A stretch of DNA of 51,664 nt from a virus (taxonomy: Duplodnaviria; Heunggongvirae; Uroviricota; Caudoviricetes), in IMG/VR virus record IMGVR_UViG_2585427970_000003; one strand, written 5' to 3'. The position numbers and the translations under genes are program-made. This document shows positions 4,774 to 48,356 of this stretch, piece by piece (position 1 is the stretch's first letter; each line of letters begins with the position of its first letter). A model generated the notes under the pieces. The model was not told the DNA's origin and did not search any database. It saw nothing but the letters and a program-made list of their open reading frames with translations.

Positions 4774-4826
4774 GGGCGGCAGAGCAGTCACGGAGTAAAA
4801 CTGATACCGCCAAACGTCACCAGAAA
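4774..4826 (-). ncRNA. dicF: DicF small RNA
   Basis: Minus-strand sequence TTTCTGGTGACGTTTGGCGGTATCAGTTTTACTCCGTGACTGCTCTGCCGCCC followed by a T-run; matches the 53-nt DicF as recalled; lies between ydfC and dicB as in the dicB operon. Confidence 0.8.
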
Positions 4827-5866: not shown

Positions 5867-6274
5867 TTATCTTTTATTTGTCCGCTGACGGGCTTTTAGT
5901 AATTCTTCAAAGAGTTTATTGAAGTTTTTTACTCGAGCTCGCATTTCGGCGAGCTGGGTATCCTGTTCTGATTCTGGCAGTGCATTAAACAGCTCAAGGA
6001 GCTCTAGTTCTTTGGGGGATAAGGCAACTGGCTTCTCAACAGGTGGTGTTGGTTGCTTGTCTTCATCGCCAAATAGAATCCATGTTGGTGAGCATTGCAA
6101 TACTTTGCTGAGGGCAAAAAGGTTCTTCCCTGTAGGTTCACTATCACCCCGTTCCCATTGTGATACAGACACATGGGAGATTTTCAGGGCTTTAGCAAGA
6201 GACCTTTGGGTGTGTTTGAGGTTTTTCCGACGATACCTGATGCGTTCGCCGATAGTTAAATTTTTTGTTTCCAT
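5867..6274 (-). CDS. dicA: DicA, CI-like HTH repressor
   Basis: 135-aa protein METKNLTIGERIRYRRKNLKHTQRSLAKALKISHVSVSQWERGD... (HTH_XRE), divergent from dicC. Confidence 0.9.
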   Translation of the reverse strand: METKNLTIGERIRYRRKNLKHTQRSLAKALKISHVSVSQWERGDSEPTGKNLFALSKVLQCSPTWILFGDEDKQPTPPVEKPVALSPKELELLELFNALPESEQDTQLAEMRARVKNFNKLFEELLKARQRTNKR

Positions 6275-6276
6275 AG

Positions 6277-6342
6277 TTAGCTAATGCTAAATCGTATTGA
6301 CTATGTTTTTGTTAACATCTATCTTGTTAGTTATGACTAACA
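6277..6342. promoter_or_regulatory. dicA/dicC divergent promoter-operator region
   Basis: Perfect palindromes TTAGC-TAAT-GCTAA (6277..6290) and TGTTAGT-TATG-ACTAACA (6325..6342); TTGACT -35-like hexamer at 6297..6302; the 10-mer ATGACTAACA recurs at 5787..5796 on the ydfA side of dicA. Confidence 0.55.
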
Positions 6343-6357
6343 ATAAAGGTGTTTTAA

Positions 6358-6588
6358 ATGCTTAAAACTGACGCTCTTTTGTATTTCGGTTCAAAAACAA
6401 AACTTGCACAAGCAGCAGGTATTCGTTTGGCTTCGCTTTATAGCTGGAAAGGGGATTTAGTTCCCGAAGGTCGCGCGATGCGTCTACAGGAGGCATCTGG
6501 CGGGGAGCTTCAGTATGATCCCAAAGTTTATGATGAATATCGTAAGACGAAGCGGGCGGGGCGGTTGAACAATGAAAATCACTCCTGA
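6358..6588 (+). CDS. dicC: DicC, Cro-like regulator
   Basis: 76-aa MLKTDALLYFGSKTKLAQAAGIRLASLYSWKGDLVPEG..., divergent from dicA. Confidence 0.85.
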   Translation: MLKTDALLYFGSKTKLAQAAGIRLASLYSWKGDLVPEGRAMRLQEASGGELQYDPKVYDEYRKTKRAGRLNNENHS

Positions 6589-7093
6589 ACAGGCTCGTGA
6601 GGCTCTGGATGCCTGGATATGTCGACCAGGAATGACACAGGAGCAGGCGACGATATTAATCACTGAAGCATTCTGGGCTTTGAAAGAGCGCCCGAACATC
6701 GATGTTCAGCGTGTCACATATGAAGGTGGCGCGATTGATCAGCGAGCGCTTGGCGTTAATCGAGTGAAGATATTTGAACGCTGGAAGGCTATCGACACCA
6801 GGGATAAGCGTGAAAAGTTCACGGCGCTAGTGCCTGCAATTATGGAGGCTATCCGGATTAATGATTTCAGGTTGTATCGTGAAATTACTGACGGAAAAAG
6901 CATCACGTGCATGATCGCCGGGTTAAACAAAGAATATGGCGATGTGGTGGAGTCCGGACTGCTTTTTGCTGATCCTGCCGTAGTGGATCGTGAAACTGAC
7001 GAACTTATAGAAAAAGCAATTGCTTTCAAACTTGCGTATCGACAGCAATACCAACAAAAAGCTGGATGGAATTATGAGCCTTCTTTTTGCTGA
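6572..7093 (+). CDS. YdaT-like protein (CII-position gene)
   Basis: 173 aa; shares the MKI..E......AW...KIF.RW...DT......ALVPAI pattern recalled from Rac YdaT; directly follows the cro-like gene. Confidence 0.5.
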   Translation: MKITPEQAREALDAWICRPGMTQEQATILITEAFWALKERPNIDVQRVTYEGGAIDQRALGVNRVKIFERWKAIDTRDKREKFTALVPAIMEAIRINDFRLYREITDGKSITCMIAGLNKEYGDVVESGLLFADPAVVDRETDELIEKAIAFKLAYRQQYQQKAGWNYEPSFC

Positions 7094-8039
7094 ACGCCCA
7101 CTGGTTATAAACACGCAGCTGGCAATGAAAATTGGCTTAAACGAAGCCATTGTTTTGCAACAACTGCACTACTGGTTGAGAGATACCAACTCCGGCATGG
7201 AATGTGATGGTGTTCGCTGGATTTATAACACAACGGAACAATGGCTGGAACAGTTCCCATTCTGGTCAGAGTCAACGTTAAAGCGCGCGTTTGCAAGTCT
7301 GAAAACGCTGGGGCTTTTGCGTTGTGAAAAGCTCAATAAATCAAAGCGCGATATGACCAATTTCTACACGATCAACTATGGGAGCGAGCTTTTAGATGGT
7401 GGCAAATTGAGCGAATCCATCGGTTCAAAATGCGCCGCTCCATCAGGTCAAAATGACACGATGGAAGAGGTCAAAATGAAACGCTCCATTGGTTCAAAAC
7501 GACCCAATGTCATCGGGTCAAAATGGCCTGATGATCTTACAGAGAATACAACAGAGATTACTACAGAGAATAAAAACACTTTTCGTCCGGAAGCTTCGCA
7601 ACCGGACCCGCAGACGACTGAACAGGATTTTTTAACCCGGAACTCCGACGCGGTTGTGTTTAGTGCGAAAAAACGCCAGTGGGGTAGCAGGGAGGATTTG
7701 GCGTGTGCGCAGTGGATCTGGGGGCGGATCGTGGGTCTCTACGAACAGGCAGCCAGTGATGATGGCGAGATCATGCGACCAAAAGAGCCTAACTGGACTG
7801 CCTGGGCCAATGACGTGCGCACAATGCGGATGCTGGATGGCAGAAGCCACAGACAAATTTGCGAAATGTTTGGTCGGGTTCAGCGAGATCCATTCTGGGT
7901 AAAAAACATCATGAGCCCGTCAAAGCTCCGCGAAAAATGGGACGAACTGGTCATCCGCCTGGGACGTTCACCTGTACAGCGTTGTGTTAATCATATTTCT
8001 GAACCGGATACAGAAATTCCGCCTGGTTTCAGAGGATAA
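7074..8039 (+). CDS. Replication initiator (O-like), iterons within coding sequence
   Basis: Central region encodes repeated IGSK peptides from five DNA iterons; ORF track starts at 7020 but ATG 7074 gives minimal overlap with upstream gene. Confidence 0.6.
   Translation: MSLLFAERPLVINTQLAMKIGLNEAIVLQQLHYWLRDTNSGMECDGVRWIYNTTEQWLEQFPFWSESTLKRAFASLKTLGLLRCEKLNKSKRDMTNFYTINYGSELLDGGKLSESIGSKCAAPSGQNDTMEEVKMKRSIGSKRPNVIGSKWPDDLTENTTEITTENKNTFRPEASQPDPQTTEQDFLTRNSDAVVFSAKKRQWGSREDLACAQWIWGRIVGLYEQAASDDGEIMRPKEPNWTAWANDVRTMRMLDGRSHRQICEMFGRVQRDPFWVKNIMSPSKLREKWDELVIRLGRSPVQRCVNHISEPDTEIPPGFRG
7416..7574. repeat. Putative replication origin: five ~23-bp-spaced iterons plus 3x ACAGAGA(A/T)TA repeats
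   Basis: Iterons with core GGT(T)CAAAA at 7422, 7446, 7469, 7491, 7515; followed by ACAGAGAATA (7541), ACAGAGATTA (7553), ACAGAGAATA (7565). Confidence 0.6.
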
Positions 8040-8079: not shown

Positions 8080-8502
8080 GTGGCAAAAGTTTTTACACAA
8101 GAAGAGCGGGAAAAAATTAAATGGCAGGTGGTGGAACTCGTGCGCCAGAGCGGCCGTGAGACGTTACGGCAACTGGAAGCTAAAACAGGTGCGACTAGAT
8201 ATCTGATGAGCGTTCTTGCCAGAGAGCTGGTAGCCAGTGGCGATGTATACAACTCCGGCTACGGGTTATTCCCCTCTGAACAGGCGCGTAAGGACTGGCA
8301 AAACGCCCGCAAAAAACTCTCGAGGGCAAAGGTGAAGAAACCTGCTGTGGTTGATCCGGACCTTATCTGGTCATCACCTGACGGAGAAATACGTCGCTAC
8401 GACAGTCGCCTAAACATAATCTGTCGCGAGTGCCGGAAGAGCGAAGTTATGCAGCGCATACTGGCTTTCTATCAGGGTAATTTTCAGGACGTGGCGCAGT
8501 GA
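8080..8502 (+). CDS. Hypothetical protein (140 aa)
   Basis: Intact ORF with no motif I can assign; stop overlaps the start of the methyltransferase remnant. Confidence 0.4.
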   Translation: MAKVFTQEEREKIKWQVVELVRQSGRETLRQLEAKTGATRYLMSVLARELVASGDVYNSGYGLFPSEQARKDWQNARKKLSRAKVKKPAVVDPDLIWSSPDGEIRRYDSRLNIICRECRKSEVMQRILAFYQGNFQDVAQ

Positions 8503-8945
8503 GTGCACCGGCAACCATTCTTGATATGTGCTGTGGCAGCCGCATGTTCTGGTTCGATAAGTCTGACGAACGGGCGATATTCAGCGATATCAGAAAAGAA
8601 GGATACACATTACGCAATGGGAGACGCTTGATTATCAGCCCTGACATTATCGCAGATTTTCGTGCATTATCATTTGCAGACGCATCTTTTTCGATGGTTG
8701 TATTAGACCCTCCGCATCTTGAGAGTGTTGGTGATAACGCCTGGATGGGAAAGAAATATGGACGGCTGAATAAAGATGCCTGGCGTGATGATTCGCGACA
8801 GAGATTTAAAGAAGCCTTTCGGGTGTTGAGGCCGCACGGCGTTCTGATTTTTTAATGGAATGAAACGCAAATACCGGTAAGCCAGATTCTGGCACTGACA
8901 GACAGAAAACCTGTTATCTGTCAACGAACAGGGAAAAAACGATAA
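8499..8945 (+). pseudogene. SAM-dependent amino-methyltransferase with premature in-frame TAA
   Basis: Motif I-like LDMCCGSRM and motif IV DPPH; TAA at 8853..8855 followed by 29 sense codons in the same frame (WNETQIPVSQILALTDRKPVICQRTGKKR) to TAA at 8943. Confidence 0.55.
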
Positions 8946-10187: not shown

Positions 10188-10521
10188 ATACAGCGAACTC
10201 CATTGGTTTAGTTGGATATTTACTGTGCTGGACAAAAACGGTTTGCGGGGAAATCTTAGTTAAGTAGAATGACTGCGGGTGCTTGAGGCTATCTGCCTCG
10301 GGCATGGACACCAACGGCAGATAGAGAAAAGCCCCAGTTAACATTACGCGTCCTGCAAGACGCTTAACATTAATCTGAGGCCAATTTCATGCTAGACACA
10401 TGTAGGTTAGCCTCTTACGTGCCGAAAGGCACGGAGAAGCAGGCTATTGTTAACACCAAGCTGTAATGTCCCCTTTGAACCATTCTAAAATGTCCCCAGA
10501 CAATTCTCTGGGGGATTTTTC

Positions 10522-11835
10522 ATGATCAAAGAGACTGTTACGATGAGTCATAAGGAACTCCACCGACTTCAGATTATTCAGGAACAAGCTGCGGCACGCA
10601 TTGGCATTTCTATTCGGCAGGTTAAACGTCTGGTGCAACGGTATAGAAATGAAGGGCCTTCTGGTCTGGTTTCCCACCGACGTGGAAAGCGTCCTAATAA
10701 TTCCTTTTCTACTGAATTCAGAGCAACAGTAATTTCACTCCTCAAAGGCCGTTACGCTGATTTTGGACCTACGTTTGCGTGCGAAAAATTGCGCGAGATA
10801 CACGGTTTATCTTTATCCGTTGAAACTCTCAGAAAGTGGATGATAGAAGAGGGGTTATGGCGTGAACGCCGTCGTAAAATTGCCCGTATATATCAACGCC
10901 GCATGCGACGACCATCTTACGGTGAACTGATCCAGATTGATGGCTCACCTCATGACTGGTTTGAAAATCGAGGCCCCAGATGTACACTGATCGTTTTCAT
11001 TGATGATGCCACCAGTGCGTTGATGGCGTTGCGTTTTGTGCCTGCTGAAACAACCCGGGCTTACATGGAAACCCTCCGGGGTTACCTTAATGATCATGGC
11101 GTACCGCTCGCTCTCTACTCTGATAGACACAGTATATTCAGGGTAAATAACCCAGAGCGGGAAGGTGAGCTGACCCAGTTCACTCGTGCGATAAAGACAC
11201 TGGGCATCGAGCCAATCCATGCCAACAGCCCGCAGGCAAAAGGGCGGGTAGAGCGCGCCAATCAGACACTACAGGACAGGCTGGTCAAAGAAATGCGGCT
11301 TCAGAATATCAGTGATATTGAAACAGCAAATGCATGGTTGCCGACCTTTATTGAAGCCTATAACAACCGGTTCGCTACGTCGCCTCGTACTACTGATAAT
11401 GCTCATCTTGATGTGCACCATTCTGAAGAGGAACTGGGTTATATCTTCAGCCTACAGGCGAAGCGCGTTCTGTCTAAAAATCTCACTTTCCAGTACAAAA
11501 GCAGTGCGTTTCAGGTACGCAGTGAGGGCCGGGGATATCGACTTAGGCATTCGGTTGTTACTGTATGCGAGAACTTTGACGGTGAAATTAACGTTCTGTA
11601 TGACGGGAAAGCGCTGGGCTGGGAAAAGTATGTTGATGGCCCGGAGCCTATACCACTGGATGATGAAAAGAGTGTCCATGAACGAGTGGATAATGCCCGT
11701 ATTGATTTACGCTCAAAATACTATGTTAAACCTAAAGCTGACCATCCCTGGCTTACGCGCCGAACGCAAAGTCATCAGCAAGTTAAGCCCCCGAAGTTAC
11801 CTAAAAAGAAGCCTGATCCCGATAAAAAAGATTGA
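10522..11835 (+). CDS. DDE-type transposase / integrase-core-domain protein (IS481/ISNCY-like)
   Basis: 437 aa; N-terminal HTH, then catalytic-type motifs IQIDGS ... LYSDRHSIF ... KGRVERANQ, basic C-terminal tail. Element ends not resolved. Confidence 0.65.
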   Translation: MIKETVTMSHKELHRLQIIQEQAAARIGISIRQVKRLVQRYRNEGPSGLVSHRRGKRPNNSFSTEFRATVISLLKGRYADFGPTFACEKLREIHGLSLSVETLRKWMIEEGLWRERRRKIARIYQRRMRRPSYGELIQIDGSPHDWFENRGPRCTLIVFIDDATSALMALRFVPAETTRAYMETLRGYLNDHGVPLALYSDRHSIFRVNNPEREGELTQFTRAIKTLGIEPIHANSPQAKGRVERANQTLQDRLVKEMRLQNISDIETANAWLPTFIEAYNNRFATSPRTTDNAHLDVHHSEEELGYIFSLQAKRVLSKNLTFQYKSSAFQVRSEGRGYRLRHSVVTVCENFDGEINVLYDGKALGWEKYVDGPEPIPLDDEKSVHERVDNARIDLRSKYYVKPKADHPWLTRRTQSHQQVKPPKLPKKKPDPDKKD

Positions 11836-17154: not shown

Positions 17155-17454
17155 AAAAATTCCTTAATACTGATAACTTGGCGCACTATACACACGTTCC
17201 TGAAGAAAGCTATAGTTTTTTGATGGGGTTGAAGATGGCTGGATGTCTAAAATAAACATTGCTTCATATGTTCAACTATGCGTTAATGATTGCGTCGGTT
17301 TGAAGAACAGACGATATACGAAGTAGTTTACTAAAGCAGTTCTCATTTCAGGTGTTATTCACTTATTCCTTCTTTGAGTCTCTCCAATTAAGTACGAAGT
17401 CGTTTCTGTTATGCAAACCATTTATGCCGAAAGGCTCAAGTTAAGGAATGTAGA

Positions 17455-17670
17455 ATGTCAAATAAAATGACTGGTTTAGTAAAATGGTTTAACGCTGATA
17501 AAGGTTTCGGCTTTATTTCTCCTGTTGATGGTAGTAAAGATGTGTTTGTGCATTTTTCTGCGATTCAGAATGATAATTATCGAACCTTATTTGAAGGTCA
17601 AAAGGTTACCTTCTCTATAGAGAGTGGTGCTAAAGGTCCTGCAGCAGCAAATGTCATCATTACTGATTAA
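17455..17670 (+). CDS. cspB: Cold shock protein CspB
   Basis: 71 aa [71 protein letters not shown]. Confidence 0.9.
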
Positions 17671-17951
17671 AATTCATCGCTCGTCTGTATACGATAACGA
17701 AGAAGGCTGATGCCTGAGTAGAGATACGGACAGAGTAGTGAATATTGGATCTCTTTAATAAAAAGTAAGGAGGTCCAATACATGAAACAATGGCTAGCAT
17801 ATTTGGCAAAATCTTAATCAGGAAAAGTATGCTAACCATTGTGGTGAAGTGCAGGTTTGCTGCATGAATAGTTTTACAGCAGAAGCTAACTGCTGGCATG
17901 GCAAAACAAAGTGCGTAAGTGGATGACTCCCACAAAAAGCACCACAATCTC

Positions 17952-19979: not shown

Positions 19980-20341
19980 GGTAATATTAAATCGGAACAT
20001 TTACATCGCGGAATGTAAAATTTAAATAAAAAGGACTCTTCCATGAGCCAAAATTCCTGAAATCTTAAGGGTAAGATAAAAGGTCTTAATCAGAATGACA
20101 CGTTTTATTAATAAATAAAGCTATTCTTTCATTGCTGTGTTTTTCTTTACAAAAGTAATCCTTGCTATGGGTGGTTAATCATGCGTTAATGGTGTTCTGG
20201 TTTGTTACAAATTTATCTGAAGCAGTCATTGTTATAATTTTATTATTTGTACCTCTTGAGATTTCCTTGTTGGTTTTTCTCTCTGATATTTTTTTTCGGA
20301 CCATTCTGCCCAAGGGCTAATTTCTTCAAAAGGTAATAATT

Positions 20342-20554
20342 ATGTCTAACAAAATGACTGGTTTAGTGAAATGGTTTAACCCTGAAAAAGGTTTTGGTTT
20401 CATCACGCCGAAAGATGGCAGCAAAGATGTGTTTGTCCATTTCTCAGCAATTCAGAGCAACGATTTCAAAACATTAACTGAGAATCAGGAAGTTGAATTT
20501 GGTATTGAGAACGGACCTAAAGGTCCTGCCGCTGTTCATGTAGTGGCGCTTTGA
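20342..20554 (+). CDS. cspI: Cold shock protein CspI
   Basis: 70 aa [70 protein letters not shown]. Confidence 0.9.
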
Positions 20555-20760
20555 GGTAGACAATATTACAAACCATATTCACTTTAGATGCCCGTGTTGT
20601 CATGGTTCCCAGTATAGAACATCATCTTTTGATGTTTCTGACATGAATCCTTTCGGGGCAAAATGTATCTTTTGTAAATCAATGATGATTACATTTGATA
20701 ATATTTCACAATACTTAAATGCCAGCCGTCTGTCGTTGGATTTAAAAAAGTGAAAATGAA

Positions 20761-41560: not shown

Positions 41561-43102
41561 ATGCCAACAGTTCCAATTTCTATGAGAAAACTTAAAGAAA
41601 TTCTTAGGCTTAAATACGGTGTTGGACTCAGCCATCGACAAATTGGTCGTAGTCTTGCAATCTCCCCTTCCGTTGTATCCAGATATGCTAATCGGGCGGC
41701 TCAACTTGGCATAAAGCAGTGGCCCTTACCTACAGGATGGGATGATACAAAACTAAAACATGCGTTCCTTCAGACCCAGGTTAAGATGAAGAAGCACTCT
41801 CTGCCTGACTGGGCTACAGTACACCGGGAACTGCGTAATAAATGCGTGACGCTGCAGCTACTCTGGGAAGAATACTGTGAGCGTAATCCAGGCGGTTTTT
41901 ACAGCTATAACCATTACTGCCGGATGTACCGTGAATGGCTCAAAACCACTTCACCATCAATGCGTCAGGTACATAAAGCTGGCGAAAAACTTTTCGTTGA
42001 TTACTGTGGACCTACCGTTGGCGTTACCGACCCTGAGACCGGAGAAATAAGAACTGCTCAGGTCATCGTAGCTGTTCTCGGGGCATCAAGTTACACATGG
42101 GCAGAGGCCACCTGGTCTCAGCAGCTTGAAGACTGGGTGATGAGTCATGTTCGCTGCTTCCAGTGGTTGGGTGGCGTTCCTGAACTTGTTGTTCCGGACA
42201 ATCTGAAAAGCGCCACATCCAGGGCATGTAAGTATGATCCTGACGTTAACCCTACCTACCAGCAGATGCTTGAGCATTATAATGTCGCAGTTTTGCCTGC
42301 GCGGCCACGTAAACCGAAAGATAAAGCCAAAGCTGAAGTTGGCGTTCAGGTTGTTGAACGCTGGATCATGGCCCGAATCAGGCATGAGATCTTCTACAGC
42401 CTTGCATCGCTTAATCAGCGCATTCGGGAGTTGCTGGAAAGACTGAATAACAAAATAATGCAGAAGTTGGGTTATTCACGTGCAGAACTCTTCATCCAGC
42501 TTGATAAACCCGCACTGAAGCCTCTTCCTGAAGCCAGTTACAGTTACACCCTGGTGAAGAAAGTCAGAGTTCATGCCGATTACCACGTGGAAATCGACAA
42601 ACATTACTACTCGGTTCCATGTTCGCTGTTAGGCCAGCAACTGGAAGCATGGATCTCCGGAGAACTGGTAAGACTCTTCAATCAGGGGCAGGAGGTTGCT
42701 GTGCACCCGCGCAAGCGTACTTATGGCTACAGTACCCGCAACGAGCACATGCCTGAAGCTCATCGACAGCATGCCACCTGGACGCCAGAGCGTCTTCTGG
42801 AATGGGCGGGGCACATAGGCAGTGAAACTCATAGTTATGTGCTTCATATACTGAACTCTCGTCCACATCCGGAACAAAGCTATCGCTTCTGCCTTGGACT
42901 CCTGAACCTTCATAAAAAATACAGTAAAGCCAGACTTAATGCAGCATGTGCAAGAGCTCTGAAAACAAAGGTATGGCGTCTGTCAGGTATTAAATCGATC
43001 CTGGAAAAAGGTCTGGATAAACAACCTGTTCAGGATCCAAAACCAGATCTGTTATCCACGATGGAACACGAAAACGTACGCGGCAGTGAGTATTACCACT
43101 GA
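41561..43102 (+). CDS. istA: IS21-family transposase IstA
   Basis: 513 aa; N-terminal HTH then integrase-core-like catalytic region. Confidence 0.8.
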   Translation: MPTVPISMRKLKEILRLKYGVGLSHRQIGRSLAISPSVVSRYANRAAQLGIKQWPLPTGWDDTKLKHAFLQTQVKMKKHSLPDWATVHRELRNKCVTLQLLWEEYCERNPGGFYSYNHYCRMYREWLKTTSPSMRQVHKAGEKLFVDYCGPTVGVTDPETGEIRTAQVIVAVLGASSYTWAEATWSQQLEDWVMSHVRCFQWLGGVPELVVPDNLKSATSRACKYDPDVNPTYQQMLEHYNVAVLPARPRKPKDKAKAEVGVQVVERWIMARIRHEIFYSLASLNQRIRELLERLNNKIMQKLGYSRAELFIQLDKPALKPLPEASYSYTLVKKVRVHADYHVEIDKHYYSVPCSLLGQQLEAWISGELVRLFNQGQEVAVHPRKRTYGYSTRNEHMPEAHRQHATWTPERLLEWAGHIGSETHSYVLHILNSRPHPEQSYRFCLGLLNLHKKYSKARLNAACARALKTKVWRLSGIKSILEKGLDKQPVQDPKPDLLSTMEHENVRGSEYYH

Positions 43103-43113
43103 TACGGGATCCA

Positions 43114-43863
43114 ATGATGAATCATCTTTACGAACAACTGACCGCACTTAAACTCACCGGCTTCCGTGATGCGCTTAAAAAGCAACTTGCTCAGCCGGGC
43201 ACATACCAGGAGCTGGGCTTCGAAGAACGCCTGTCATTACTGACAGCAGAAGAACTAACCTGCCGTGAAAACAGGAAGGCAGAGCGTCTGATCAAACATG
43301 CACGGTTCAGACTTAATGCTGAGTTATCAAAGCTGGATTATCGTAACAATAGAGGGCTGGACAGGGCCCTCATCCGTTCACTCAGTCAGGGAAACTGGTT
43401 AACCCTGAAACAAAATATTTTACTGACCGGGGCCACCGGCAGCGGTAAAACGTTCCTGGCATGTGCACTTGGTCATAATGCCTGCCGACAGGGATACAAG
43501 GTCTACTATTATCGCCTTAAAGCGCTGATGGAACAGTGCTATCAGGGGCATGCTGATGGAAGATACAGCAAACTTTTGACCAGGCTGAATAATAGCGATC
43601 TGCTGCTTCTGGATGACTGGGGGCTGGAACCTCTCTCATCAGAACAGCGTAGCGACCTGCTGGAAATAGTGGATCTGATGTACCAACGAGGCTCAATCAT
43701 CGTAGTGAGCCAGTTGCCGGTGGAAAACTGGTACAAAATGATCGGAGACTCCACACATGCGGATGCCATCCTAGATCGACTGGTTCATGGCAGTATCAAG
43801 ATCGAACTTAAAGGAGAATCAATGCGGAAAATACAATCTCCGTTGACCGAAGGAGATCAGTGA
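43114..43863 (+). CDS. istB: IS21-family ATP-binding helper IstB
   Basis: 249 aa; Walker A GATGSGKT, Walker B LLLLDDWG. Confidence 0.85.
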   Translation: MMNHLYEQLTALKLTGFRDALKKQLAQPGTYQELGFEERLSLLTAEELTCRENRKAERLIKHARFRLNAELSKLDYRNNRGLDRALIRSLSQGNWLTLKQNILLTGATGSGKTFLACALGHNACRQGYKVYYYRLKALMEQCYQGHADGRYSKLLTRLNNSDLLLLDDWGLEPLSSEQRSDLLEIVDLMYQRGSIIVVSQLPVENWYKMIGDSTHADAILDRLVHGSIKIELKGESMRKIQSPLTEGDQ

Positions 43864-47781: not shown

Positions 47782-48356
47782 TGGCATTCAGAATGAGTGA
47801 ACAACCACGGACCATAAAAATTTATAATCTGCTGGCCGGAACTAATGAATTTATTGGTGAAGGTGATGCATATATTCCGCCTCATACAGGTCTGCCAGCA
47901 AACAGTACCGATATTGCACCGCCAGATATTCCGGCTGGCTTCGTGGCTGTTTTCAACAGTGATGAGTCATCGTGGCATCTCGTTGAAGATCATCGGGGTA
48001 AAACGGTTTATGACGTGGCTTCCGGCGACGCGTTATTTATTTCTGAACTCGGTCCGTTACCGGAAAATGTTACCTGGTTATCGCCGGAAGGGGAGTTTCA
48101 GAAGTGGAACGGCACAGCCTGGGTGAAGGATACGGAAGCAGAAAAACTGTTCCGGATCCGGGAGGCGGAAGAAACAAAAAACAACTTGATGCAGGTAGCC
48201 AGTGAGCATATTGCGCCGCTTCAGGATGCTGCAGATCTGGAAATTGCAACGGAGGAAGAAATCTCGTTGCTGGAAGCATGGAAAAAGTATCGGGTATTGC
48301 TGAACCGTGTTGATACGTCAACTGCACAGGATATTGAATGGCCAGCACTGCCGTAG
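47781..48356 (+). CDS. tfa: Tail fibre assembly protein Tfa
   Basis: 191 aa; start overlaps stf stop by 1 nt. Confidence 0.8.

Follow-up and report, generated by a model that had tools for sequence, protein, structure and literature searches.

The question raised by this locus is where a temperate phage that carries an O-like initiator begins to copy its genome, and how it brings a helicase to that site. The locus lies in the viral sequence IMGVR_UViG_2585427970_000003 (Caudoviricetes) from IMG/VR, whose 51,664 bp we refer to as the window. A 321-codon open reading frame (ORF; 7074-8039, + strand) encodes a 321-amino-acid (aa) replication initiator that matches phrog_391 ("replication initiation O-like") with an E value of 1e-91, and codons 108-168, in the linker between its N-terminal and C-terminal domains, contain two arrays of short repeats. 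We conclude that positions 7394-7607 are very probably the vegetative replication origin of a lambdoid Escherichia coli prophage, located within the part of its own initiator gene that encodes the linker. The direct support consists of the repeats, their constraint as DNA, their position, the homology of the encoded protein, the link between iteron type and N-terminal domain, the low stability of the duplex, and the absence of a loader gene; from these observations we infer that the site is bound and unwound, that it acts as an origin, and how the helicase is recruited.

Repeats within the initiator gene

A first-pass annotation had reported five repeats at about 23-bp spacing, starting at 7422, 7446, 7469, 7491, and 7515, and these read in the sequence as it stated: GGTTCAAAA occurs at 7422 and 7491, GGTCAAAA at 7446 and 7469, and GGGTCAAAA at 7515. 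Defined by the core GKTCAAAAYG, five + strand copies fall within 7423-7525 (starts at 7423, 7446, 7469, 7492, and 7516; spacing of 23, 23, 23, and 24 bp), and the rest of the window holds a single copy, on the - strand. The largest cluster of the 8-mer core per 120 bp never exceeded 2 in 300 dinucleotide-preserving shuffles, and the 23-bp period was recovered by both Tandem Repeats Finder and a separate repeat search. An initial motif, GGTYCAAAAYG with one mismatch allowed, gave 7 matches versus 4.8 expected; it was a poor choice and was dropped for the better-defined core and the cluster statistic.

The repeats are iterons with internal dyad symmetry, and their outer arms are common to neighboring copies. 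The family consensus, CCATCnGGTCAAAATGACCnGATG, is a dyad of ∼25 bp around a central A-tract. Five good copies and one degenerate copy are present in the window, all on the + strand: iteron 1 (CCATCGGTTCAAAATGCGCCGCTCC; 7417-7441), with a weak right arm; iteron 2 (CCATCAGGTCAAAATGACACGATGG; 7440-7464), with dyad arms matching at 9/11 positions; iteron 3 (GGAAGAGGTCAAAATGAAACGCTCC; 7463-7487); iteron 4 (CCATTGGTTCAAAACGACCCAATGT; 7486-7510), whose dyad CATTGGTTC/GACCCAATG was recovered as an inverted repeat; and iteron 5 (TCATCGGGTCAAAATGGCCTGATGA; 7510-7534), again with 9/11 matching arm positions and the best kept among relatives. The degenerate copy, iteron 0 (GGCAAATTGAG; about 7394-7418), stands upstream in 23-bp register with the array and is intact (GAGGTCAAAGTGA) in mEp460_4F5, a Klebsiella phage, Citrobacter, and Enterobacter. 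Both this sixth iteron and an inverted repeat at 7585-7607, described below, were missed by the first-pass annotation.

To the right of the iterons, ACAGAGAWTA recurs with a 12-bp period at 7539, 7551, and 7563 (span, 7539-7572). These three repeats had also been recognized in the first pass, with coordinates (7541-7574) that were ∼2 bp off. One other copy is found in the window (14627, - strand); the chance expectation is 0.14 per window, and four or more copies were found in 0/100 shuffles. The whole block, three copies of ACAGAGAWTAC and an A-run (7536-7579, + strand), is the presumed DNA-unwinding element. Positions 7536-7576 form the least stable 40-bp duplex in the gene (nearest-neighbor free energy of -45.6 kcal/mol, versus a window mean of -56.8 and standard deviation of 4.9), at the 98th percentile across the whole window. 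The inverted repeat, GTCCGG-N11-CCGGAC (7585-7607, + strand), was read directly in the sequence to the right of this AT-rich block; the palindrome is retained by mEp460_4F5 and also by a Klebsiella phage whose C-terminal domain differs and an O157 prophage whose N-terminal domain differs. A search of Rfam over the arrays returned no RNA family. No convincing DnaA box or primase trinucleotide site was recognized in the 12-mers, although no search aimed at them was made.

Constraint on the repeats as DNA

Because the period is 23 bp, the five iterons are read in different frames (1, 0, 2, 1, and 1) and encode GSKC, GQND, VKMK, GSKR, and GSKW. Across 54 related loci, 146 iteron cores are distributed 63/55/28 over the three frames, and they are therefore not peptide repeats. 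Among nine enterobacterial relatives with 70-78% identity, the proportion of third-codon positions that never vary rises from 10% in the N-terminal domain to 54-64% across the iterons and 86% across the 12-mers.

The 12-mer block is in frame (four codons) and reads T-E-x-T in 100/103 copies. Within it, all 56 Glu codons are GAG (56/56), whereas the remainder of these genes uses GAG for 282/641 Glu residues (44%; P = 2e-19). At x, the codon takes the form A[A/T/G/C]T (N, I, S, or T), so that the second base varies while the wobble base is fixed. At three loci, the first 12-mer is shifted to another frame, and its DNA is kept. The repeats are thus DNA elements, constrained as DNA rather than as protein.

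The initiator and its domains

The initiator gene is 100% identical to the "DNA replication protein O" gene of Escherichia phage PhiR42_1 (from ECOR13) and to a chromosomal gene of E. coli ATCC 8739, and it shares 98% identity with its counterpart in phage HannyBb and 97% with that in mEp460_ev081. Of 5426 complete E. coli genomes, 1849 carry it at ≥80% coverage, in most cases with ≥95% identity. Public records name it "hypothetical protein," "transcriptional regulator," or, wrongly, "Primosomal protein I," and none of the records that we fetched annotates an origin feature.

The C-terminal domain (coding region 7641-7961, + strand) is homologous to that of lambda O, based on BLASTP and on matches to phrog_2357, phrog_277, and phrog_2514; over 148 aa (residues 147-294), the window protein shares 34% identity with the C-terminal half of lambda O (E value of 1e-26). 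In lambda, this domain of O binds the P protein. BLAST pairs residues 147-170 of the window protein with residues 135-158 of lambda O, and the alignment starts in a segment whose coding sequence is the 12-mer block in the window and the AT-rich tract in lambda. In the lambda record, the annotated iterons immediately precede the aligned part.

The N-terminal domain (coding region 7074-7390, + strand) is predicted to be a winged helix-turn-helix and is the presumed iteron binder. An AlphaFold2 model built from an alignment of 65 homologues has this fold, with a predicted local distance difference test (pLDDT) score of 85.6. The best 120 matches of the homologue search consisted of short or partial proteins only and were used for this alignment, not to establish architectures. 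Foldseek matches to the model include the N-terminal domains of staphylococcal plasmid RepA proteins (4pql, 4pt7, and 5kbj) amid many generic winged-helix regulators. The N-terminal ∼110 residues have no Pfam match at an E value of <0.01, including PF04492, and none in NCBIfam, whereas lambda O matches PF04492 at 6e-36; BLASTP of the N-terminal 140 aa against lambda O likewise detected no similarity. A sequence search of the PDB with the initiator recovered a DnaT-like tail (see below) and a chance match to YteR, with nothing for the N-terminal domain.

The first-pass annotation had likened the arrangement to that of the origin inside lambda O. The comparison stands for the site and for the C-terminal domain but not for the N-terminal domain, which is not of the lambda O type. 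Given the missing PF04492 match, the locus has a lambda-type layout on a different DNA-binding module.

Module exchange among related initiators

Relatives of the N-terminal domain occur at 45-75% identity in Citrobacter, Enterobacter, Raoultella, Pantoea, Edwardsiella, Proteus, and Gilliamella and at about 50% identity in isolates of Staphylococcus, Geobacillus, Anoxybacillus, Brevibacillus, and Clostridium. The domain is also encoded in 96 deposited phage genomes, including those of S. aureus phages 96, 42E, and phiIPLA88, Bacillus phage TP21-L, Listeria phages, and Pseudomonas phage AF. DNA flanking the relatives' loci has the G+C content typical of the respective hosts (28% to 49%). In most relatives, three to six GGTCAAAATGACC-type iterons at 21- to 24-bp spacing directly follow the N-terminal domain, and two to five copies of CAGAGAnTAC at 12 bp come next. 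Variant iteron arms are found in a metagenome-assembled genome (MAG) labeled Taibaiella (GTGCCAAAATGGCAC), in Brevibacillus (GTGATCAAATTGATCA), and at locus L023 (GGTGCAAAATGCACC). The first-pass annotation had named the absence of the repeats from homologous initiators as an observation that would speak against an origin; the cassette is kept in the deposited phages HannyBb and mEp460 and across phyla, so that this check does not refute the assignment.

Bins labeled Veillonella parvula, Bacillota, and Collinsella (loci L010, L012, and L029) carry the E. coli phage gene at 99-100% protein identity, which probably reflects misbinning rather than true host range. Since MAG taxon labels are unreliable, the claim of cross-phylum occurrence rests on isolate genomes.

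The C-terminal domains attached to the window-type N-terminal domain differ among hosts: lambda O-type in the window and Edwardsiella; Phg_2220_C in Staphylococcus, a Klebsiella phage, and Pantoea; and DnaB_2/DnaD in Geobacillus. These exchangeable domains are presumably matched to the helicase-loading system of the host. An alphaproteobacterial MAG (locus L062) has the same N-terminal domain and cassette with a C-terminal DnaA_N domain (PF11638; E value of 2e-10), suggesting that its initiator recruits helicase in the manner of DnaA. The converse combination is seen in an O157:H7 prophage (locus L005, 2006-4954), in which the same C-terminal domain (∼86% nucleotide identity there) and DnaT-like tail are joined to a different N-terminal domain (HTH_36); its iterons are TTGACCCGTC at 15-bp spacing, and no ACAGAGA block is present. 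In the O protein of an Stx1 phage, the 12-mer block is the sole part in common with the window protein and is preceded by GGGAAAC-type iterons.

A scan of IMG/VR for the two-copy 12-mer pattern CAGAGANTACNACAGAGANTAC found at least 120 contigs, against a rough expectation of a few for 18 specified bases. In the 80 of these loci that we examined (L072-L151), the block mostly falls at residues 135-190 of an ORF of 250-370 aa, and the N-terminal domains are of at least three kinds. Initiators with the block range from Staphylococcus, Geobacillus, and Clostridium to E. coli (loci L006, L033, and L030 among them). Of 89 distinct origins with the window-type N-terminal domain, 66 have at least two GGTCAAAATG-type cores upstream of the 12-mer block, versus 0/45 with other N-terminal domains (Fisher P = 9e-19); these loci were chosen by N-terminal domain similarity or by the 12-mer pattern and are phylogenetically related, and the statistics on related loci, this one included, ignore kinship. 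Iteron type tracks the N-terminal domain family, in indirect support of the presumed iteron binding by the initiator, and the iterons therefore belong to that domain. Judged from these sequences, the locus is made of three modules: an N-terminal domain with its own iterons, a 12-mer block common across initiator families and phyla, and an exchangeable C-terminal domain. Simple AT-richness does not explain the DNA-level conservation of the 12-mers across initiator families and phyla.

Helicase loading and the DnaT-like tail

The first-pass annotation had noted no DnaC- or P-type helicase loader nearby, and three lines of evidence bear this out. The genes that follow the initiator are of other kinds: a DUF977/Ren-like gene (8080-8502, + strand; PF06163 with an E value of 5e-29, phrog_142) where lambda has P, and then a methyltransferase fragment. 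No loader, helicase, or primase is annotated in the record of PhiR42_1. Finally, tblastn of the window with lambda P and two phage DnaC-like proteins found only the IstB gene of an IS21-family insertion and a weak match to lambda P (E value of 0.004), which we judged spurious. The DnaC-like match (43231-43791) was considered as a hidden loader and rejected, as it is this IstB.

The same order, initiator and then DUF977/LygF, is found in HannyBb and mEp460_ev081, and the arrangement is therefore not decay peculiar to the window prophage; the annotations of mEp460_4F5 and a Klebsiella phage likewise show no loader downstream of the initiator. In the O157 prophage with the same C-terminal domain, genes for a DnaC-like protein and a DUF1627 protein stand between the initiator and DUF977 genes, and both are missing in the window. 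The order in that prophage, a protein with a DnaT-like tail and then a DnaC-like protein, mirrors the dnaT-dnaC operon of the host (PMC5778457). The methyltransferase ORF after DUF977 (8499-8855; 118 aa) matches parts of Pfam methyltransferase models and may be truncated; in relatives, a Dam protein of 217 aa or a Dam gene of 810 bp is encoded close by.

The window initiator ends in a tail, VQRCVNHISEPDTEIPPGFRG (7974-8036, + strand), that is identical to E. coli DnaT residues 159-179 at ∼16/21 positions, based on NCBIfam and PDB alignments. It matches positions 160-179 of the NCBIfam DnaT model and was aligned with PDB entries 2ru8, 6aep, and 9zbt_D. Against the full-length DnaT profile (NF002770), the protein scores 16.2 bits, below the cutoff of 201 bits and from the last 20 residues alone. 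The RAST label "Primosomal protein I" in mEp460 records is misleading, as nothing beyond the tail is DnaT-like. A DnaT C-terminal motif on the O-related protein DopC was noted before by Brezellec et al. in 2017 (PMC5509034). How DnaT contacts DnaB-DnaC, and its partner there in E. coli, is still unknown (PMC13377028), and in a 2026 preprimosome paper we found nothing specific on the role of the last 20 residues of DnaT.

Tails of the form PxGFR(G/S) also occur on initiators with other C-terminal domains and, among genome loci with named hosts, in Enterobacterales only. In raw counts, 1 of ∼45 tail-bearing initiators has a downstream loader. After clustering, a loader stands beside 0/5 tail clusters versus 23/50 tail-less clusters (Fisher P = 0.068), with four enterobacterial proteins as loader references, so that Firmicute loaders are underdetected. 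As the association shrank to this value after clustering, we report the co-occurrence of tail and loader absence as a lead rather than a result. Since no loader is encoded by the phage, use of the host DnaB-DnaC complex by the window initiator is probable and is the simplest reading.

Probable assignment as an origin and alternative explanations

The structural features of a lambda-type origin are all found here: a site in the initiator linker, at least four dyad iterons, an easily melted tract followed by a palindrome, and constraint on the DNA. From the homology of its layout to that of ori-lambda, we envision that dimers of the winged-helix N-terminal domain would bind the five or six dyad iterons (CCATCnGGTCA-AAA-TGACCnGATGG) ∼23 bp apart and that the bound initiator would assemble a nucleoprotein complex resembling the O-some. 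On supercoiled DNA, and aided by rightward transcription from the cro promoter, this complex would destabilize the adjacent 12-mer block (7536-7579). The lambda O-type C-terminal domain and DnaT-like tail would then guide host DnaB to the melted region, probably in its complex with host DnaC.

Several points weigh against this reading. The outermost iterons, 0 and 1, are degenerate, and the AT content of the 12-mer block is just moderate (about 67%). The Foldseek matches of the N-terminal domain are weak (E values of 3e-3 to 3e-2, template modeling scores of 0.5-0.59, and 14-19% identity). The prophage has two insertion sequence (IS) insertions and may itself be defective, and a loader-free recruitment step is speculation. 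In the searchable literature, we found no experiment that examines whether an origin of this type is bound, unwound, or able to replicate autonomously.

Alternatives can be set against the same data. It is hardly credible that the repeats only reflect protein-level selection for a repetitive linker (GSK/GQND and TENTTEITTEN) and have no role as DNA. The 12-mer block could suggest this, being in frame, nearly always T-E-x-T, and a plausible flexible linker joining two domains; yet the 23-bp iterons yield unrelated peptides in three frames, third-codon positions vary far less than they do in the flanking domain, GAG is invariant even in Firmicute loci, some of low G+C content, while x varies, and three loci keep the DNA of the first 12-mer in another frame. 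A less improbable but still unlikely explanation of the 12-mer block is that it is conserved mainly as a homology patch for exchange of N- and C-terminal domains, a recombination linker rather than an unwinding element. Homology with other prophages does break at its right edge (7572/7573): many E. coli prophages match just from query position 500 (window position 7573) rightward, with another N-terminal domain at left, Klebsiella phages match just up to query positions 496-499, and Stx phages match across these 40 bp only, at 97.5%. However, the same DNA lies beside N-terminal domains that have diverged to ∼50% aa identity in hosts of 28-50% G+C content (Staphylococcus, Geobacillus, and Clostridium), and recent recombination with E. 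coli phages therefore cannot account for it. The block is also the least stable duplex in the gene, at the site of the lambda AT-rich tract, and the two roles can coexist.

Two further alternatives concern the function of the array. We consider it quite unlikely that the array is an intact but nonfunctional relic in a prophage that lost its helicase loader and can no longer replicate. The DnaC-like and DUF1627 genes of the O157 prophage, the IS insertions in the window, and the degenerate iteron 0 would fit such decay, but the loader-less gene order is shared by HannyBb and mEp460_ev081, the records of mEp460_4F5 and the Klebsiella phage show no loader after the initiator, and the gene is kept, mostly at high identity, in the 1849 E. 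coli genomes mentioned above. Iterons of plasmids have dual roles, and an ori-lambda-dependent inhibition phenotype has reportedly been observed (PMC3349717), so the array might be bound by the initiator mainly as an autoregulatory, copy-control, or exclusion site, for example, by titrating the initiator of an incoming phage. We regard this as very unlikely, given that a low-stability block and a palindrome accompany the array in the exact order of ori-lambda and that the cassette is kept in most relatives; such a role is also compatible with origin function. No other candidate origin was found, although no search aimed at one was made.

Prophage context

The initiator gene belongs to the early-right operon of a lambdoid prophage. 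Upstream lie the immunity and early-right genes (5867-7093), namely, a repressor gene (5867-6274, - strand), a Cro-like gene (6358-6588, + strand), and a CII-like/YdaT gene (6572-7093, + strand), and rightward transcription runs into the initiator gene. The IS21-family element (41561-43863; IstA of 513 aa and IstB of 249 aa) is inserted so that it separates a J-like tail gene from lom. The record of PhiR42_1, which otherwise matches, lacks this element, and most of the ∼3 kb by which the window is longer is due to it. A transposase gene, a single 437-aa ORF (10522-11835), is found in the early region beside a sok-like RNA (10277-10448); the PhiR42_1 record splits this stretch into two coding sequences, "Mobile element protein" and "transposase." Rfam matches in the window comprise the small RNA DicF (4774-4825, - strand) and two cspA thermoregulator leaders and an IS009 RNA among positions 17294-17686, 20196-20581, and 48124-48322. 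The matching phage record also includes relBE, flxA, and ydfABC-type genes. With these features, the prophage combines an early region of the Qin/Rac type with head and tail genes like those of lambda.

Comparison with known systems and significance

Origins inside an initiator gene are familiar from lambda and from Stx phages 933W and P27, the latter two with six iterons each. In the RepA_N plasmid initiators of Gram-positive bacteria, a winged-helix N-terminal domain binds iterons inside the rep gene and the C-terminal domain is host specific. RepA of pSK41/pTZ2162 is among the top fold matches of our N-terminal domain model, but the match is weak and the replicon is a plasmid, not a phage. 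In lambda, ori consists of iterons and an AT-rich tract in the middle of O, and the AT-rich tract is the unwinding site (PMC7466680). The window locus resembles ori-lambda in its position at the interdomain linker of the initiator gene, in its iterons (four to six dyads about two helical turns apart in this type; TCCCTCAAAACGAGGGA in lambda and GGTCAAAATGACC here, with a central A-tract and the same center, TCAAAAYGA), in its purine-rich, low-stability tract followed by a short palindrome (lambda has TCGTCAGAGAATTCTGGCGA at the equivalent place, read directly), in the homologous C-terminal domain, and in following cro and a CII-like gene. It differs in its N-terminal domain, unrelated in sequence, in the other iteron arms, and in the ordered 12-bp repeat that forms its AT-rich tract. 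Two features of the lambda O/P module are absent, the PF04492 N-terminal domain and a downstream P- or DnaC-type loader, and the DnaT-like tail is on the window protein, not on lambda O. On this comparison, the origin would work like ori-lambda but with another DNA-binding module and in an initiator-only form.

Modular initiators with DnaD-like (PF07261) or Phg_2220_C (PF09524) C-terminal domains, for example, in Staphylococcus, Bacillus, and Listeria phages, share the N-terminal domain (45-52% identity) and the linker cassette but differ in their C-terminal domains (DnaB_2/DnaD, Phg_2220_C, and even DnaA_N); in the searchable literature, we found none characterized as an origin. The 13-mer unwinding element of E. 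coli oriC is likewise a set of short tandem AT-rich repeats beside initiator sites, and the window block also starts with GATCT. Sequence and period are different (12 bp, ACAGAGAnTAC), and unwinding of the window block is predicted from duplex stability and position. Similarity to E. coli DnaT is confined to the last 21 residues, and the rest of the initiator has none. In the searchable literature, which covers few subscription journals and no figures, we found no description of this origin, iteron, or 12-mer and no paper with any of four nucleotide strings from the iteron or the 12-mer block. The layout is thus that of textbook lambda, and this type of origin seems to be undescribed.

As the lambda-type layout is known, the core finding adds nothing to the understanding of phage origin function. 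The conservation of the 12-mer DNA across initiator families and phyla is the more interesting by-product. A bolder combined proposal, possible but doubtful, is that the 12-mer array is a sequence-specific unwinding or helicase entry signal used by at least three unrelated initiator families and that the PxGFRG tail is a DnaT mimic letting initiator-only phages of Enterobacterales load DnaB without a loader of their own. If this were true, the 12-mer signal would have to be recognized by something common to all of these families; candidates are the replicative helicase, the primase, and a single-strand-binding mode conserved among the initiators. The loader-free arrangement and the DnaT-derived tail offer a testable handle on how initiators recruit the host DnaB-DnaC complex, and the modular split into N-terminal domain with iterons, 12-mer block, and C-terminal domain provides a simple rule for locating origins in many temperate phages.

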